Positions 37,566 through 45,563 of a DNA stretch of 64,000 nucleotides are shown piece after piece. The translations under genes and the position numbers were made by a program. The notes beneath the pieces are model-generated. The model was not told where the DNA came from, searched no databases, and worked only from the letters and a program-made list of their open reading frames with translations. Where the stretch lies: assembly GCA_050951545.1 (NCBI GenBank), contig JBMNJG010000003.1:160001-224000 (forward strand). The letters are read 5' to 3'. This DNA comes from Limnochordia bacterium. Its GTDB lineage: Bacteria; Bacillota; Limnochordia; DTU080. Each line of letters opens with the position of its first letter. Within the stretch, counting starts at the first letter, position 1.

Positions 37566-38270
37566 CTAGCCCTCAGTCCCATCAGGTAGCAGTGATTGCT
37601 GCAATTTGCTGATCGCCCGCTTCTCAATACGCGACACATACGAACGAGAGATACCCAGAAATCGTGACACTTCTCTTTGGGTCTTGCGCACGCCATCAAC
37701 CAAACCATAGCGCAGCTCTAAGACTCGCTTCTCGCGTCGACTCAAATGACACAAACTGGCATACATCCGCTCCTGATCTACCTTGTGCTCTACGCACTCT
37801 GCCACATCACCATCACTAGCCAACACATCGATGAGAGTGATCTCATTGCCTTCTTTGTCAGCGCCAATAGGATCGTGCAGCATGACCTCATTGCGCAGCC
37901 TCTTGGTCGACCGCAGATACATGAGAATCTCGTTCTCGATACATCGAGCTGCGTAGGTGGCCAGTCGGGTCTGCTTGTGCCTGTCAAAGGTGTTGATCGC
38001 CTTTACTAAGCCTATCGTGCCGATTGAGATCAGGTCGTCCGTATCCTCACCAGTATTGTCGAACTTCTTGACGATATGGGCCACCAACCTGAGGTTGCGT
38101 TCTATCAAGACATTGCGCGCTGTGCGATCACCCCCGGCAAAGGCCTCGAGATAAGCAGCCTCCTCTTCCGGCTTGAGCGGACTCGGGAATACATTGTTGG
38201 CAACGTAGGAAACAAGAAAGGTAAGACCTTGTAGCAAGACGGTGGCCATAGCGGCAAGCAGAACGGCCAA
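37566..38270 (-). CDS. sigK: Pro-sigma K sporulation sigma factor (uninterrupted)
   Basis: Pro-sequence ...[59 protein letters not shown] 38270 follows GGAGGTG. Confidence 0.95.
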
Positions 38271-38289
38271 TAGCTGCACCTCCACTCTC

Positions 38290-39647: not shown

Positions 39648-40105
39648 GTAGCTCCCCCTCTCTGACAGTCCGTGGTTTCCATGCTGTGCTGCCTACCTAG
39701 AAAACCCTGTAGAATCACCGATGCGGCTATCTTGTCAATTTTCGTGCGACGTTGGGCGCGACTTACGCCACCCTCCAAGAGGGCCTTCTCGGCAATGGTT
39801 GTTGTGTAGCGTTCGTCCGCCAAATGCACATCCCTGGCGCTGCGGTCCGCTAAGATGGACGCGAAGCGTCGGACTTCTGCTGCCTCTGGCCCTTCATCTC
39901 CGGACGTACGCCTTGGCAAACCGACCACAAAAGCAACCACCTCCTGAGCTTCGGCTATTTCCATGATCTTGTCAATATCCGCCGCCTCCGACCTACCGCG
40001 TTGCAGCGTTTCGCTCGGCTGAGCGGTGATCTGCAAGGGATCGCTGATGGCAATACCAATCCTTCGCTCGCCAACATCCAGGGCCATCAGCCTGCCGCAA
40101 CTCAA
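39623..40105 (-). CDS. ruvX: Pre-16S rRNA nuclease / putative resolvase RuvX (YqgF)
   Basis: ALDVGERRIGIAISDPL, VGLP, DERYTT, IDKIAA..ILQ. Confidence 0.95.
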   Translation of the reverse strand: MSCGRLMALDVGERRIGIAISDPLQITAQPSETLQRGRSEAADIDKIMEIAEAQEVVAFVVGLPRRTSGDEGPEAAEVRRFASILADRSARDVHLADERYTTTIAEKALLEGGVSRAQRRTKIDKIAASVILQGFLGRQHSMETTDCQRGGATCSKTEKT

Positions 40106-41370
40106 GGGGCAATCACCTCAACCTCATTGTCGCTCGTGCCAGCTACAACCACACGAATCCAGGGTGTCCAAGTCGGAAGGTGTTTACGCAGACGGCCTTG
40201 CACATCCATGTCGCCCACCTCACCAGTCTCTAGCAACAGCCGCCGAGCCTGCTCAGGCGTACGGCCAGCTACCAAACGAGAGATCGCTACAGGATCCACC
40301 GTGCCTCCCACGGATATCCGCGACGAAACCCGCAACTCCTGAACGCCACCCTTTTCTGGTTCGCCTTCTATGGAAACAACGGGTGAGCCCAGCACCACAT
40401 ACCCCTTGGGCACGAACGCGTCGGCCTCTTTTCGCACATAGCGGCGCACATCCTCCACGAGGACATACCTACCCCGAGCCCTACCGCGTAGCGTAGCATG
40501 CACAGCATCTGTCGCTGCGCCTACAGCTGGTCGCGCCGCAAACTCAGTCTCTTGTACCTCTACCAAGGAATGAATCAGATAGGCTCCCTCTCCAGCATCC
40601 GAACTCAGAAGCGGCTGCGCCTTAAGCCGCAACTCAGAGCCAAGTCGCTGACGTAGCCCAGCAAGGTCATCGTGAGTTGCATAGGCGATTGTCCGTTCCG
40701 CACCCCCGCGCATGGCTTCCGGATTGACAACTCTCAACCCCGCAGGCCCTTGGGGAAGGGATGTGATGCGCCCTGCTGCTACGTTTCCGGAGTTGCCCAA
40801 CTCCTGGGCCCGGACACGGGCCTCCGTCTGGCCAGCCTTAATGCCAACTGGAACTTCCATGAAATACTCAGCTCGGCGGGCTGGGACACGCACAGCATTA
40901 GCAACTGTGAAACGCTGGCCACCATCGGTGGCGACTATGGTTCCCGCAGCTACAGCTATCTCGCGCTCTGTCTCGTTGAAGAGTATGACGGTACCCGTGG
41001 CCGCCGCCACGCCTTGCTGACGCCTCCCTGTAGCGGGAGCAGATGCTGAAGCCTCTACGCTTATCTCCAGAGAACGGAGTGCAACACCTCCGTAGCCATT
41101 AGTCTCACTCGACAGGGGAATCGTAAGCGGCCGCTCTAGAGTCCGTGATACTGGCGCCACCACCACCGTGACCCGCGGCAAAAAAAGAGAAATCAGAATG
41201 ACCAGCGCCAGTAGAGCTATTGCCGCGGCCGCCAGGCGCTGCGGCATTGCAAGGCTTGACAGATGGCGCGCAGTTCGCTTAGCCACAGGCTGCATAGGAG
41301 CGGTGACCTGTGAAGCCACTTCTTTTTCATCGTGGCCAGCGTGATAGGTGTCGGTCCCGTCTGTTGCCAC
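40102..41370 (-). CDS. Membrane-anchored baseplate J/gp47-like domain protein (orphan)
   Basis: Single N-proximal TM, then ATGTVILFN...VAAGTIV...F...V.A...GNSGNVAAGRI...VVNPEAMRGGAE, the Baseplate_J barrel pattern as I recall it. Confidence 0.7.
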   Translation of the reverse strand: MATDGTDTYHAGHDEKEVASQVTAPMQPVAKRTARHLSSLAMPQRLAAAAIALLALVILISLFLPRVTVVVAPVSRTLERPLTIPLSSETNGYGGVALRSLEISVEASASAPATGRRQQGVAAATGTVILFNETEREIAVAAGTIVATDGGQRFTVANAVRVPARRAEYFMEVPVGIKAGQTEARVRAQELGNSGNVAAGRITSLPQGPAGLRVVNPEAMRGGAERTIAYATHDDLAGLRQRLGSELRLKAQPLLSSDAGEGAYLIHSLVEVQETEFAARPAVGAATDAVHATLRGRARGRYVLVEDVRRYVRKEADAFVPKGYVVLGSPVVSIEGEPEKGGVQELRVSSRISVGGTVDPVAISRLVAGRTPEQARRLLLETGEVGDMDVQGRLRKHLPTWTPWIRVVVAGTSDNEVEVIAP

Positions 41371-41424
41371 AGATGAACCCCCTTGCCTCAGATCCGGTCA
41401 CTTCCGTGAGGCCAGCTAAGGGTA

Positions 41425-41685
41425 CTACGGTGCCACCGTTTTCAGGTAAAGCTTTACTAGCTCCTCTATGATCTCATCGCGCTCGACGCTTCGCATAAGC
41501 CCTCGAGCATTGCGATGCGAGGTAATATACGTTGGATCGCCCGAGATCAGGTATCCGACGATTTGGTTGACGGGATCGTATCCCTTCTCCTGTAGGGCCT
41601 GGTAGACCTCTTGCAAGACCCGGCCCACATTTGTCTGGTCCTTTCCCACACGAAACAACATGGTTTCATCGGGTAACTCCGCCAT
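41425..41685 (-). CDS. ireB: IreB/ReoM (UPF0297, YrzL) regulatory phosphoprotein
   Basis: [46 protein letters not shown]. Confidence 0.95.
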
Positions 41686-41768: not shown

Positions 41769-44420
41769 CTAGTCCCTAACCCCGGTCTGTCCCTGCAATG
41801 TCTCACTAACCATAGCCTTCACCTTAGCCAGCGCTTCACCTAGTCCTGCGGGGTTCTTGCCCCCAGCTCTGGCCATGGCCGGGCTGCCGCCACCTCCGCC
41901 TTTCACCAAGGGAGCCACTTGCTTGATTAGTGCATTAGCCGCCACGCCTTTGGCAACGGCCTCTGGTGTCGCCATGAGCACGAGGTAAGCCCTTTCTCCG
42001 TCACCCGATCCGAGGGCCAGGATTGAAGATCCCAGGCGTTGCTTCAGTGTGTCGCCCAACGCACATAGACCGTCAGTGTCCATGTTGTCTACTTCGGCTG
42101 CCACCACCGCCAACCCATCGATCTGCTCAGCAGAGGCTAGCAGGTCATCCAGCCGACTGACTGCCAACTGGGACTTGACGGACTCCAGCTCCTTTTCGAG
42201 CTGCTTGAGCTGATCCATCACTCTTTCGACTTGGTCCTCCACCTCGGGTACTCCGACCTGTAGAAGAGTGGCAATAGCCGCCAGTGTTTTCGACTCCTCC
42301 GCGATAAGCTTTAGAGCACCTTCACCAGTAACCGCCTCGATGCGGCGCACGCCAGCAGCTACACTACTTTCGCCTACGATGCGGAAAAGCCCTATCTCAC
42401 CTGTACTACGGACGTGAGTGCCCCCGCATAGCTCCTGGCTGTACTCACCGATCTGTACCACACGCACCTGGTTGTCATACTTCTCGCCGAAGAGAGCCAT
42501 GGCCCCCGAGGCGACCGCATCTTCATACGACATCGCCTTCGTGGTGACAGGGAGATTCTGTAGAATAAGGCTGTTTACCCGTCTCTCAAGTTCAGCGATC
42601 GCCTCGGCGTCCAGAGCGGCAAAATGCGTAAAGTCAAAACGTAAGCGATCAGGTGCTACCAAAGAACCGGCCTGGTTGGCGTGTTCACCCAAGACTCCGT
42701 GCAGAGCCCAGTGAAGCAGATGCGTGGCTGTGTGATTTCGTTGCGTAGGCAGGCGCCTATCTCGATGAACCTGCGCCTGGACCTGCTCACCCACGCGCAT
42801 CTCACCCTCAAAACGACCGTGGTGAACGATGGTTCCGCTACCGAGGCGTAGAACCTGCTGCACTGCGAAACTCCCCTGAGCGCCTTTGATCACGCCTGCA
42901 TCCGCCACTTGACCGCCACTCTCGGCGTAGAACGGTGTTTTCGCCAAGACAACCCCTGCCGTGCCGCTTCCGCTCACATGTCCAACCTGCTCACCATCAG
43001 TAACCACAGCCACAATCTCTGTGGTAAGATCACAGGTCTCATATCCTGCGAACAAAGTGGCAGGTAGCTCGAGATCACCATAGCCCTCGCTCTCATCCCC
43101 GAGGTAGCCTGTCTCGGTGCGGGCCGCCCGTGCTCTGGCGCGCTGTTGCTTCATCATCGCCTCAAAACCGGCTTTGTCGATCCCTATGCCTCGATCAGCT
43201 GCAATCTCTTCAGTCAGTTCAAGAGGAAAACCATACGTGTCGTGCAGGCGGAAGACATCCTCTCCCGAGATCACACCGCTCTCGGGATCTACTTCTTGCA
43301 TCAACCGCGTGAGAATGCTCATGCCTTGCTCGAGTGTCGCATGAAAGCGCTGCTCCTCTTGGGCTACCACTCGCTTAATATGGTCGACTCGGTCAAGGAG
43401 ATCGGGATATCCCACCTGCATCTGCTTCACCACGACATCCACGACACCCGTCAGAAACGCCCGCTTGATGCCGAGAAGATGACCATGGCGCACAGCCCGC
43501 CGCAGAAGTCGACGTAAGACATAGCCTCGCCGCTCGTTGCTCGGCAGAACACCGTCATAAATCATGAAAACGACACCGCGCATGTGATCACTGATCACAC
43601 GCAGGCTTTCGTCAGACTGAGCGTCTGCGCCGTAGACCACCCCAACTTGCTGGGCCACGTGGTCGATGATCGGACGCAACAAGTCCGTGTCAAAAATGCT
43701 CTGCACTCCCTGCAATATGGCGGCAACGCGCTCCAGGCCCATACCCGTATCAATGCCTTTGCGGACCAGAGGGTGCAGGTCGCCGTTCTCATCCTGGTGG
43801 AACTGTATGAACACCAAGTTCCAAAGCTCCATGAAACGCTCGCAATCGCACCCCGGCTGACAGTCCGGATTGCCACAGCCATAGGCCGCCCCGCGATCCA
43901 CATGGATTTCAGAACATGGCCCGCAAGGTCCGACGCCAATACCCCAGAAGTTATCCTCCTTGCCCAGTCGAACTATGCGTTCCGCAGGAACACCGATCTG
44001 AGTATTCCAGATCTCGAACGCCTCATCGTCGTCCAGGTATATGGTAATCCACAGAGAGGCGGGATCAAAACCCAGCACCTCAGTTACAAACTCCCACGCC
44101 CACGCAATGACCTCGCTCTTGAAGTAGTCGCCAAATGAGAAGTTGCCGAGCATCTCGAAGAACGTACCGTGGCGGTCGGTTTTTCCAACGTTCTCAATAT
44201 CTGCTGTGCGCAGACAGCGCTGACATGTCGTAATCCGATTTCTCGGCGGAATCTCCTTGCCCACAAAATAGGGCTTAAAGGGTATCATTCCGGCCACTGT
44301 CAAGAGCAGAGTAGGATCTGCTGTTGGCACCAGAGAAGCGCTGGGCAACCGCAAATGGCCCTTCGCCTCAAAGAACTCCAAATACGCGGTGCGTAGTTGG
44401 TCCACCGTCATCGCTTGCAC
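41769..44420 (-). CDS. alaS: Alanine--tRNA ligase
   Basis: HGTFFEMLGNFSFGDYFK, GPCGPCSEI, IDTGMGLER, NHTATHLLH, ELCGGTHV. Start moved to GTG 44420. Confidence 0.98.
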   Translation of the reverse strand: MQAMTVDQLRTAYLEFFEAKGHLRLPSASLVPTADPTLLLTVAGMIPFKPYFVGKEIPPRNRITTCQRCLRTADIENVGKTDRHGTFFEMLGNFSFGDYFKSEVIAWAWEFVTEVLGFDPASLWITIYLDDDEAFEIWNTQIGVPAERIVRLGKEDNFWGIGVGPCGPCSEIHVDRGAAYGCGNPDCQPGCDCERFMELWNLVFIQFHQDENGDLHPLVRKGIDTGMGLERVAAILQGVQSIFDTDLLRPIIDHVAQQVGVVYGADAQSDESLRVISDHMRGVVFMIYDGVLPSNERRGYVLRRLLRRAVRHGHLLGIKRAFLTGVVDVVVKQMQVGYPDLLDRVDHIKRVVAQEEQRFHATLEQGMSILTRLMQEVDPESGVISGEDVFRLHDTYGFPLELTEEIAADRGIGIDKAGFEAMMKQQRARARAARTETGYLGDESEGYGDLELPATLFAGYETCDLTTEIVAVVTDGEQVGHVSGSGTAGVVLAKTPFYAESGGQVADAGVIKGAQGSFAVQQVLRLGSGTIVHHGRFEGEMRVGEQVQAQVHRDRRLPTQRNHTATHLLHWALHGVLGEHANQAGSLVAPDRLRFDFTHFAALDAEAIAELERRVNSLILQNLPVTTKAMSYEDAVASGAMALFGEKYDNQVRVVQIGEYSQELCGGTHVRSTGEIGLFRIVGESSVAAGVRRIEAVTGEGALKLIAEESKTLAAIATLLQVGVPEVEDQVERVMDQLKQLEKELESVKSQLAVSRLDDLLASAEQIDGLAVVAAEVDNMDTDGLCALGDTLKQRLGSSILALGSGDGERAYLVLMATPEAVAKGVAANALIKQVAPLVKGGGGGSPAMARAGGKNPAGLGEALAKVKAMVSETLQGQTGVRD

Positions 44421-44479
44421 ATCTACGCCCCCCCTATGATGTGAACCCAGCGTTGTGCCTAATAAATGGTACAATCAGT

Positions 44480-44508
44480 ATGATACAAGAGCTCGCCACG
44501 ACCGTCAA
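44480..44508 (-). promoter_or_regulatory. SigA promoter of the alaS operon
   Basis: TTGACG-17 bp-TATCAT about 60 nt upstream of the start codon. Confidence 0.75.
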
Positions 44509-44530: not shown

Positions 44531-45550
44531 CTACGAGCCGGTCACCTCTTCTGCAAGGTATCCAATAATGAGCTTCAGGGAAGCTGCAGCAGGAACGGCC
44601 AGAAACATGCCCCATATGCCAAGCAACTCGCCTCCCACCAGAATCGAAAAGATCACTGTCAACGGATGCAGGTCCATGCTGCCGCTCATCACCTGTGGCT
44701 GAAGGACAGCCCCCTCCACCTGATGCACCACAACGACGAGCACTACCGCCCAAAGAGCCGTAGCCGGAGACTGCACAAATGCAAACAAAACAGCTGGCAC
44801 CGCTGCGATGACCGGCCCGAAATAGGGGATGAACTCGAACACAGCGGCCACGGTACCGATAACCAATGCGTATTTCACCTTCAGGCTTGCGAGCCCCACA
44901 CTGATCAACAGGCCTACTATAGCAGCGACAATCAACTGGCCGCGCAGGAATGCTCCCATAAGCTCGTTTAGTCTCTGAGCCAAGACCAGTACCTCCTGAC
45001 GGCGCGCTGGAGGCAGAAGCGACAAGAACCACCTCTGAATCTTCTCAGTATCACGCAGAAAGTAGAAGGCGAGAAAGGGAACCAGCAAGATGGTGAAAGT
45101 ACGCGCCAGCAAAGCTAGAATGACCTCAAGACTGCGCGCTACCAACTGCGCAAGCAGCACTTCCACCCGCTGCGCCCCAGCACTCAGAATAGTTCGCAGC
45201 AAGTGGGACGCTCTAAGGTGCAAGACACTCGCGGCAGTGCCTCGGGTGTAGTCGCTAAGGTCGCGAGCCTGTGGCAAGTTGGCCAGCATCTCCTCGACCT
45301 CTGCGGCCAACAGAGGAACACCTACATATAGCGTCAGCCCACCAACAACCGCGAATATCACGTAAACCAGTACTATAGCCCCGCTGCGAGGGATCTGTCG
45401 AGATTCAAACGCTTGTACCAACGGGTTAGAGACGTAGGCCACGACAGCCGCAAGGGCGAACGGCACGAGTACCCCGCGTACTAGGTACAACAAGACAATA
45501 ACGCCACTTGCGGCTATCAGGAGGATCAGAAGGCGCGATCGGTCGAGCAT
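44531..45550 (-). CDS. AI-2E family transporter (YrrI-like)
   Basis: PF.LA...AY..NPLV, FYFLRD, FLRGQL, FIPYFGP, LHPLTVI.SILVGG.L.G; upstream of alaS. Confidence 0.92.
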   Translation of the reverse strand: MLDRSRLLILLIAASGVIVLLYLVRGVLVPFALAAVVAYVSNPLVQAFESRQIPRSGAIVLVYVIFAVVGGLTLYVGVPLLAAEVEEMLANLPQARDLSDYTRGTAASVLHLRASHLLRTILSAGAQRVEVLLAQLVARSLEVILALLARTFTILLVPFLAFYFLRDTEKIQRWFLSLLPPARRQEVLVLAQRLNELMGAFLRGQLIVAAIVGLLISVGLASLKVKYALVIGTVAAVFEFIPYFGPVIAAVPAVLFAFVQSPATALWAVVLVVVVHQVEGAVLQPQVMSGSMDLHPLTVIFSILVGGELLGIWGMFLAVPAAASLKLIIGYLAEEVTGS

Positions 45551-45563
45551 GCCCAAGACGCCA

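Follow-up and report, generated by a model that had tools for sequence, protein, structure and literature searches.

We analysed a stretch of 64,000 nucleotides from a Limnochordia bacterium (contig JBMNJG010000003.1, positions 160,001 to 224,000), called the window below, and within it a gene that lies between ireB and ruvX and encodes a 422-residue membrane protein with a Baseplate_J-like outer part. In the product of this gene, which we call the J-like gene, a fold otherwise seen only in phage tails, tailocins and type VI secretion appears in a new setting, that of a cellular protein anchored in the membrane. It forms the outer domain of a bacterial membrane protein that is both conserved and under selection. 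The gene lies in a housekeeping and cell-wall cluster that ranks among the most conserved, and does so in at least two very distant bacterial groups. On the same strand, the genes run in the order alaS, ireB, J-like gene, ruvX, DUF1292, mltG, sigK and a gene for a YqeG-like HAD phosphatase. The features of the gene and of the cluster, in window positions, are as follows.

40102..41370, minus strand: membrane-protein gene, 422 residues, Baseplate_J-like ectodomain, short form; GTG start (from the list of open reading frames)
41378..41384, minus strand: Shine-Dalgarno sequence AAGGGGG, 7 nucleotides upstream of the GTG start
41236..41370, minus strand: predicted cytoplasmic N-terminal tail, residues 1-45, in the place of the ~95-residue domain of the long forms; predicted local distance difference test score (pLDDT) ~50 in the model
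41179..41235, minus strand: predicted single transmembrane helix, residues 46-64, by hydropathy (helix 42-63 in the model)
40105..41178, minus strand: predicted extracytoplasmic multi-domain part, residues 65-422, by model secondary structure and Foldseek
40696..41007, minus strand: Pfam Baseplate_J match (PF04865), residues 122-225, profile positions 21-111
40102..40105, minus strand: TTGA, in which the TGA stop of the J-like gene (40104-40102) overlaps the TTG start of ruvX (40105-40103)
41425..41685, minus strand: ireB (IreB/ReoM family), directly upstream; PF06135, 124.5 bits
39623..40105, minus strand: ruvX (YqgF), directly downstream; PF03652, 138.7 bits
39333..39647, minus strand: DUF1292 gene; PF06949, 57.3 bits
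38339..39433, minus strand: mltG (YceG-like); PF02618, 297 bits over residues 67-356
41769..44474, minus strand: alaS, head of the cluster (from the list of open reading frames)
44508..44480, minus strand: promoter-like site upstream of alaS, by consensus scan
37566-38285, minus strand: sigK, uninterrupted; NCBIfam SigK, 349 bits against a cut-off of 252

An original prediction, made from the letters of the window, had described a 422-residue reading frame with a short tail, one transmembrane helix and a Baseplate_J domain, and both Pfam and hydropathy agree with it; the ribosome-binding site of the gene (AAGGGGG) and its TTGA overlap with ruvX are likewise found in the sequence as described. 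The Shine-Dalgarno sequence of ruvX (GAGGTGA) falls within the 3′ end of the J-like gene, and the GC content of the latter, 0.58-0.59, is similar to that of the rest of the window. The scan for promoters, which gives consensus matches only and was read on the minus strand, finds a single non-coding site, the one upstream of alaS, and four more matches that all lie inside the alaS and mltG coding sequences. By the same kind of scan no promoter-like site is seen in the 54-nucleotide gap upstream of the J-like gene, nor any terminator-like site between ireB and ruvX. Metagenome DNA runs (bioreactor, digester, landfill and sludge; 16 in all) contain the stretch almost completely. RNA contigs match inside the J-like gene at 99% identity or more in three of four biogas-fermenter RNA libraries, and one of them (40067-40247) continues past the junction for 35 letters into ruvX; since RNA libraries can hold DNA, these contigs are a weak hint that the gene is expressed. 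The RNA contigs do not cover all of the stretch, and no weight is put on the gaps.

A membrane-anchored relative of the baseplate J fold

The protein has one hydrophobic segment only (residues 46-64, mean Kyte-Doolittle 3.0), and because four of the 15 residues preceding it are K or R, the N terminus is predicted to be cytoplasmic. The Baseplate_J profile is passed with 28 bits where 21.1 are needed (E 1.6e-6), the match covering only positions 21-111 of its 255, and is also passed by eight of ten other family members tested, while a scan of the J-like protein against NCBIfam gave no match. Across the family alignment G192, G223 and D235 are invariant, and G115, A124, G126, N132, G143, T144, A188, G195, N196, N216, G369 and P399 nearly so. 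The barrel of the ectodomain contains the motifs GxxGN...NPxxxxGGxD, which we take to resemble those of phage J proteins.

The fold was examined with an AlphaFold2 (AF2) model built from a 130-sequence alignment; the sequence used, P0001, is identical to the window protein except for R347Q. The model has a mean pLDDT of 90.6 and a predicted template modelling score (pTM) of 0.72, and consists of the transmembrane helix (42-63), a beta-rich part corresponding to the J-type barrel (67-230), a 27-residue helix (233-259) and two alpha/beta domains (263-410). A Foldseek search of the PDB returned 19 matches at E<=1e-3, of which the ten best are all chains of baseplate wedge or "triplex" proteins, from cyanophage A-1(L) (8kea), phi812 (9euf), Mu (9ki1), phiCD508 (9gb2 and 9g8s) and diffocin (8v3w). 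These ten have a probability of 1.00 and E-values from 1.6e-7 to 3.6e-5, and most align over about 340 columns of targets that are 350-380 residues long. The same search against BFVD gave 50 matches at E<=1e-3, and those with names are mostly baseplate J or baseplate wedge proteins. Judged by the model, the outer part is truly related in structure to baseplate J, and the structural match that had been predicted is borne out in both databases. The domains and their order agree with the wedge proteins, though in the monomer model their arrangement relative to one another does not.

Conservation and synteny in Bacillota

An exhaustive search of 1.84 billion representative sequences gave 2686 matches at E<=1e-3. 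The number falls to 571 when E<=1e-10 is required and to 24 at E<=1e-30; the matches span residues ~44-410. Among 41 related genomes, 17 have a homologue: all five in each of families f1 and f7, four of five in f8, one of two in f2 and, weakly, the single genome of f11; none was found in the other eight families of this set. A profile search of an even sample of the phylum found matches in 50 of 301 genomes at E<=1e-5, with 43 at E<=1e-57 and the remaining seven weak and partial. Presence within a family is consistent (for example 6/6 in f18, 4/4 in f30 and 3/3 in f38), and Syntrophothermus is one more distant carrier.

A ruvX gene lies downstream on the same strand in 11/11 loci of the relatives and 33/35 of the phylum sample, or in 35 of 37 distinct genomes when those fetched twice are counted once, and the two exceptions (L039 and L044) had flanks of only 1.5 kb. 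The ruvX gene comes either directly after the J-like gene or after one intervening aldo/keto-reductase/4Fe-4S gene. The original prediction regarded the gene as an orphan inside an otherwise uninterrupted operon, which does not stand: 571 representatives match at E<=1e-10, and genes of the family are found at this position across many Bacillota families as well as on the Patescibacteria-type contigs described below. The link with the ruvX-mltG cluster is conserved far beyond the window's genome.

Selection was estimated from the ratio of nonsynonymous to synonymous substitution rates (dN/dS). For the window against its congeners synonymous divergence has reached saturation (dS 1.3-2.7), and the ratio was therefore taken from the least saturated pair, L014/L015 (dS 0.83), where it is 0.126 for the J-like gene, compared to 0.110 for mltG, 0.151 for DUF1292, 0.222 for ireB and 0.242 for ruvX. 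The J-like gene is under purifying selection, at a ratio close to that of mltG.

The Pfam name and the fold match would naturally suggest the remnant of a prophage or of a contractile injection system, or a baseplate subunit that is used in trans by a tail-like locus elsewhere. However, the genome (3.64 Mb, 93.9% complete) has no PF04865 match other than the J-like gene, and no match to Phage_sheath_1 (PF04984), GPW_gp25 (PF04965) or Phage_GPD (PF05954) was found in it. The absence of a sheath gene from the 64 kb, as originally predicted, is in this way extended to the genome by profile search, with the limit that tube and integrase families were not searched and that not every open reading frame of the 64 kb was annotated. 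Lacking sheath, gp25 and hub genes in its genome, and having a membrane anchor, the protein does not qualify as a working baseplate subunit. The transmembrane anchor, the ruvX synteny kept in 35/37 genomes, the dN/dS of 0.13 and a GC content like that of the surroundings all speak against a remnant, and we regard this possibility as already close to refuted. On the points by which the original prediction could have failed (the fold match, a patchy and neutral distribution, a contractile injection locus elsewhere), it survives. A "domesticated phage protein", as the gene had also been called, is not shown, and any capture from a phage would have to lie long ago. The label "baseplate J/gp47 family protein", under which databases file genes of this family, misleads toward a prophage.

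Several features of the neighbourhood vary between loci. Many Bacillota families have a gene for an aldo/keto reductase-4Fe-4S dicluster fusion between the J-like gene and ruvX, which the window does not have; it was located in five loci.

L008, 2608-3552: aldo/keto reductase/4Fe-4S gene
L019, 2924-3868: aldo/keto reductase/4Fe-4S gene
L041, 2673-3713: aldo/keto reductase/4Fe-4S gene
L044, 2847-3854: aldo/keto reductase/4Fe-4S gene
L036, 256-1413: aldo/keto reductase/4Fe-4S gene

In three other Bacillota families the gene directly before the J-like gene encodes a signal-peptide-like protein of 690-740 residues with no Pfam family, the single match being a sub-threshold one to Sulfatase in one of four proteins tested. 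This protein may be another partner. It is found in loci L133-L135 and at the following positions.

L129, 8048-10120: gene for the 690-740-residue protein
L130, 7876-10092: gene for the 690-740-residue protein
L131, 1689-3836: gene for the 690-740-residue protein
L132, 8211-10385: gene for the 690-740-residue protein

The window has a gene for a 341-residue multi-pass membrane protein upstream of alaS (44531-45556, minus strand), and the relative L136 has, at a comparable place upstream and there immediately ahead of its J-like gene, a gene of the AI-2E transporter family (PF01594, 206 bits). At the other end of the cluster, the listed mltG reading frame, with its TTG start, shares about 100 nucleotides with the DUF1292 gene, and its YceG match begins only at residue 67; the real start of mltG is probably further downstream. 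One family member, P0019, is filed in NCBI under a metagenome-assembled genome named "Chitinophagales bacterium", from an unexpected phylum, for which a binning error or a transfer is possible.

Long and short forms and their neighbours

The family varies most in the part that precedes the membrane. We compared 159 proteins for the length of this part, including the window's own (P0001) and an outlier (P0159). At the chosen threshold 149 of them show a transmembrane segment and ten do not; the single helix is preceded by fewer than 60 residues in 25 proteins (P0001 included), by 60-180 in 111, by 180-300 in four and by at least 300 in nine. The common long form carries an N-terminal domain of ~95 residues, found in 11/18 aligned relatives and absent from the window protein, which has only the 45-residue, low-confidence tail. 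This domain has no sequence match in Pfam, NCBIfam or the PDB, Pfam giving only Baseplate_J, and a search of the atlas with it returned only unnamed Chloroflexota clusters, with scores below 0.9. Short forms, defined by a profile match from position 79 or later, occur in the window, in G001, G002, G004 and G020, in five genomes of genus g83 and in G218, and have ireB or alaS directly upstream.

In the nine longest forms its place is taken by an N-terminal domain of ~240 residues, which likewise drew no useful sequence match in Pfam, NCBIfam or the PDB. For one of them, P0065, the AF2 model of this domain (pLDDT ~85-90) consists of two beta-beta-beta-alpha-beta-alpha-beta-alpha lobes, the actin/ASKHA fold, and its fold matches are Ppx/GppA, EutJ (TM-score 0.54 by target), FtsA, YeaZ, sugar kinases and PilM, at E-values of 1e-8 to 1e-7. 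The assignment to the actin fold is based on these matches of the predicted structure and not on hhalign, in which the long-form domain aligned to FtsA-like proteins from Bacillota over 96 columns with a probability of 31% and E 5e-4, values that are suggestive only. As far as the sequence can tell, the phosphate-binding motifs of the domain look degenerate. We also considered whether the ~95-residue domain of Bacillota could be a remnant of the actin fold. Residues 16-76 aligned to 69-133 in the expected register, with an hhalign probability of 0.7% and E 0.076, which leaves the idea unsupported. No separate gene for either N-terminal domain was found in the window's genome (best E 0.2 and 0.0035); the E 0.0035 match, to the profile of the ~95-residue domain, is extremely weak and belongs to an open reading frame outside the window (G000, contig C3, 137632-138546, minus strand).

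In several Bacillota loci a gene directly upstream encodes an actin-fold ATPase of 370-430 residues, with its DxGT, DIGGGSTD and GGGS motifs intact. All four proteins tested pass PF14450 (41-60 bits against a cut-off of 31.8). These FtsA-like proteins score 62-126 bits with TIGR01174 ftsA, which is under the equivalog cut-off of 175.85, and we thus regard the ATPase as a paralogue within the FtsA family and not as FtsA itself. Seven of these proteins are 30-77% identical to each other. Strong orthologues (E<=1e-160) occur in seven of the 301 genomes of the phylum sample and adjoin the membrane-protein gene in all seven; the next tier of matches (E 1e-30 to 1e-40), mostly proteins of ~620-825 residues, we take to be paralogues.

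When the loci of the relatives are included, ten distinct genomes have the FtsA-like gene and all ten have a long form, compared to none of the eight short-form genomes of the phylum sample at E<=1e-30. The same is seen within families. In the window's own family, G003 and G005 have both the FtsA-like gene and the long form, and the window's genus and G004 have neither; family f7 splits likewise, with G015, G024, G031 and G034 on one side and G020 on the other. These splits imply that the ATPase gene and the N-terminal domain were lost together more than once, and such joint loss suggests, but does not show, that the domain is the docking place of the ATPase. The window copy is a reduced member of the family, with no ATPase gene and no cytoplasmic domain. 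Coupling to FtsA-like actin-fold ATPases, by fusion or adjacency, is the most informative feature of the family and was missed by the original prediction. The window copy has lost it.

A cytoplasmic part that varies in this way (none, ~95 residues or an actin fold) is also usual for sensor ectodomains. The outer part could accordingly be a sensor or ligand-binding domain, similar to the PASTA part of PrkC/IreK, that feeds the status of the wall into the IreB (ReoM) pathway, in which case the short form would need a partner carrying the cytoplasmic output. The presence of ireB immediately upstream, here and in many Bacillota loci, fits this, and there is a lead, no more than that, in a structurally neighbouring atlas cluster of 52 Ser/Thr kinases, mostly from Chloroflexota, 50% of them with Baseplate_J (TM-score 0.35 by query, 222 residues aligned). 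However, no kinase fusion was found among the longer relatives: the range of 931-2655 residues gave nothing and that of 794-2265 only P0159, a protein of 1173 residues with PF26078 and PF04865 and no kinase domain. No ligand-binding fold surfaced besides the baseplate proteins and a domain of GlxA (see below), and ireB is not among the recurrent neighbours in Patescibacteria-type loci. We consider a sensor decidedly unlikely.

The nearest atlas clusters to the family come from Minisyncoccota, Kaiseribacteriota, Saccharimonadota, Chloroflexota and Bacillota. One long-form cluster includes a protein named "Patescibacteria group bacterium", and the long forms of this type match the family at E-values of 1e-23 to 1e-15. 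A scan of metagenomes with four long forms gave 80 loci (L049-L128; median GC 0.42), which cluster into 69 groups at 90% identity, and into 54 and 21 groups at the looser thresholds of 70% and 50%. Their neighbouring genes were clustered and representatives named by Pfam. AlaS is encoded on the same strand at position -1 in 55 of the 67 loci that have an upstream gene, and MltG/YceG within +4 in 43 of the 50 that have at least three downstream genes. RuvX lies within +3 in 27/50, and a thymidine-phosphorylase-like gene, which takes the +2 place, within +3 in 22/50; a RodZ-like HTH_25/Glucodextran_B protein lies within -4 in 15/43. A sortase (PF04203, 66.9 bits) is found at +1 in 56/70 loci. 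No ireB was seen among the recurrent neighbours of the Patescibacteria-type loci. The recurrence of alaS-X-ruvX-mltG in both Bacillota and Patescibacteria is the strongest argument that the position of the gene is old and possibly functional.

The sortase that directly follows in 56/70 metagenome loci raises the possibility that the protein is a platform or anchor for the attachment of surface proteins or pili, and that its proximity to mltG is incidental. The combination of an actin fold with a bitopic protein is like the layout of PilM-PilN, and PilM is among the fold matches. Against this, there is no sortase in the Bacillota loci examined, nor in a gene adjoining the one in the window. The protein has a conserved C-terminal LP motif, but in the model this is a buried strand with no transmembrane segment or charged tail after it, so that it is not a sortase substrate of the usual kind. 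We consider such a platform very unlikely.

The order mltG-sigK, found in the window, where sigK directly follows, is also found in related loci. It could be taken to indicate that the protein acts only in the sporulation of spore-forming Bacillota, in engulfment (which the original prediction had raised), cortex formation or coat assembly. The family and its neighbourhood occur, however, on Patescibacteria-type contigs as well, and to our knowledge Patescibacteria do not form spores. In addition, the gene comes after alaS and ireB, with no promoter-like site in the gap before it. There is very little chance that the role of the protein is restricted to sporulation.

A candidate envelope scaffold and its likeness to known systems

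Our preferred explanation is that the gene encodes a housekeeping, single-pass (N-in) membrane protein, the outer part of which, ~350 residues, is a distant homologue of the wedge protein J of the Mu gp47/T4 gp6 type. It belongs to an old cellular family resident in the alaS-(ireB)-X-ruvX-(DUF1292)-mltG cluster of Bacillota and Patescibacteria-type bacteria. In the fuller versions the outer J-like domain is joined across the membrane to an actin-fold (FtsA-like/ASKHA) module, which is fused in the long metagenome forms and in some Bacillota comes from the adjacent upstream gene, with the ~95-residue cytoplasmic domain then present on the membrane protein. The J-type ectodomain would be the working end outside, and the actin-fold module, where present, would position or regulate it from inside. 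We infer that the family could serve as a scaffold across the membrane by which an assembly outside the cytoplasm is placed or held, most likely one for the synthesis or remodelling of peptidoglycan at division or elongation, the process served by MltG and IreB. The short form in the window would keep the outer scaffold or binding function alone, anchored by its transmembrane helix. The recurrence of MltG, IreB, a RodZ-like protein and sortase is what indicates wall synthesis, remodelling or surface attachment. We hold the identity of the protein with high confidence, the function in wall growth or division is possible and put forward tentatively, and the explanation as a whole (a J-like cellular envelope scaffold, a reduced member here, and a link to wall or division) we judge moderately probable.

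Several results weigh against this explanation. Global TM-scores to solved baseplate proteins are only ~0.2 in Foldseek, with large root mean square deviations. In the phylum sample 251 of 301 genomes are without a match, so the protein is dispensable for most of the phylum. Most long-form loci in Bacillota have no adjacent FtsA-like gene, and the window's genome has neither an FtsA-like orthologue (none at E<=1e-30, the best local match being 1.6e-11) nor a homologue of the N-terminal domain, so that the role of the fuller forms may not carry over to the window copy. The tightest neighbour in Patescibacteria-type loci is the sortase and not mltG, which indicates attachment of surface proteins as much as processing of glycan. 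Moreover, alaS, ruvX and mltG form a housekeeping cluster that is conserved in itself; the linkage with mltG may reflect no more than this, and a shared position need not mean a shared function. A predicted complex of the MltG ectodomain (residues 56-364, 44-row alignment) with the J-like ectodomain (64-415, 130 rows) gave scores of 0.01 and 0.00, which weigh neither for nor against an interaction.

J-type proteins build triplexes and rings in phage baseplates. Extending the preferred scaffold to an ancient trans-envelope machine in bacteria with a single membrane, an FtsA-like filament inside might position a J-type triplex or ring outside. Where the wall grows, this outer assembly would organise either the termination of glycan strands by MltG or attachment through sortase. 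The outer domain and the phage wedges would then have a common origin, with the cellular protein possibly the source, and the short form would be an example of that assembly functioning with no filament. This is speculative, and we think it unlikely. The family bears on the origin of baseplate wedge proteins. Its coupling to an FtsA-like actin-fold protein in the fuller versions makes it a candidate for a component so far lacking in accounts of wall growth or division, both in Clostridia-like Bacillota and in Patescibacteria, ultrasmall bacteria about whose machineries of division and envelope little is known.

Searches of the literature by title and abstract found no publication on a cellular, membrane-anchored Baseplate_J family, and at that level the papers listed on baseplate J are almost wholly concerned with phages, prophages, tailocins or secretion systems. 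The main text of a transposon-sequencing (Tn-seq) paper on Saccharibacteria (PMC10633639) makes no mention of baseplate, FtsA, sortase, MltG or alaS.

Three known systems can be compared with the protein described here. The closest in structure is the baseplate wedge J family (Mu gp47, P2 gpJ, T4 gp6 and the diffocin and phiCD508 "triplex" proteins; PF04865), with which it shares a homologous barrel and the collinear order of barrel, long helix and alpha/beta domains, though the sequence match is confined to profile positions 21-111 and the global TM-score is ~0.2. Unlike that family, the window protein is anchored in the membrane, its gene belongs to a housekeeping operon, and its genome lacks genes for sheath, gp25 or hub; it is related to the baseplate J fold and is not a working baseplate subunit. 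A more limited likeness is to GlxA, the membrane-anchored copper oxidase of Streptomyces lividans (4unm, 5lxz), in which a beta domain of ~140 residues aligns at E ~1e-4 with 18-21% identity; the Pfam family PF21110 (GlxA) is found in 10-15% of the members of some atlas clusters of the family. The window protein has neither the propeller nor the copper site of GlxA, and the likeness is limited to this single domain.

At the level of the family, the layout is like that of FtsA with FtsN or FtsQ/DivIB, of PilM-PilN and of MreB-RodZ, namely an actin-fold ATPase inside and a single-pass protein with a folded outer domain. The genes lie near others connected with the wall, among them mltG and, on some metagenome contigs, the gene for a RodZ-like HTH_25 protein. 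The outer domains of the partners of FtsA and PilM are of the POTRA, SPOR or PilN/PilO type. Here, in contrast, the outer domain is J-like, the FtsA-like genes score under the equivalog cut-off and the window copy has no actin-fold partner. To the family the window adds a Bacillota branch, the placement after ireB and a naturally reduced form that does without the ATPase and the cytoplasmic domain.

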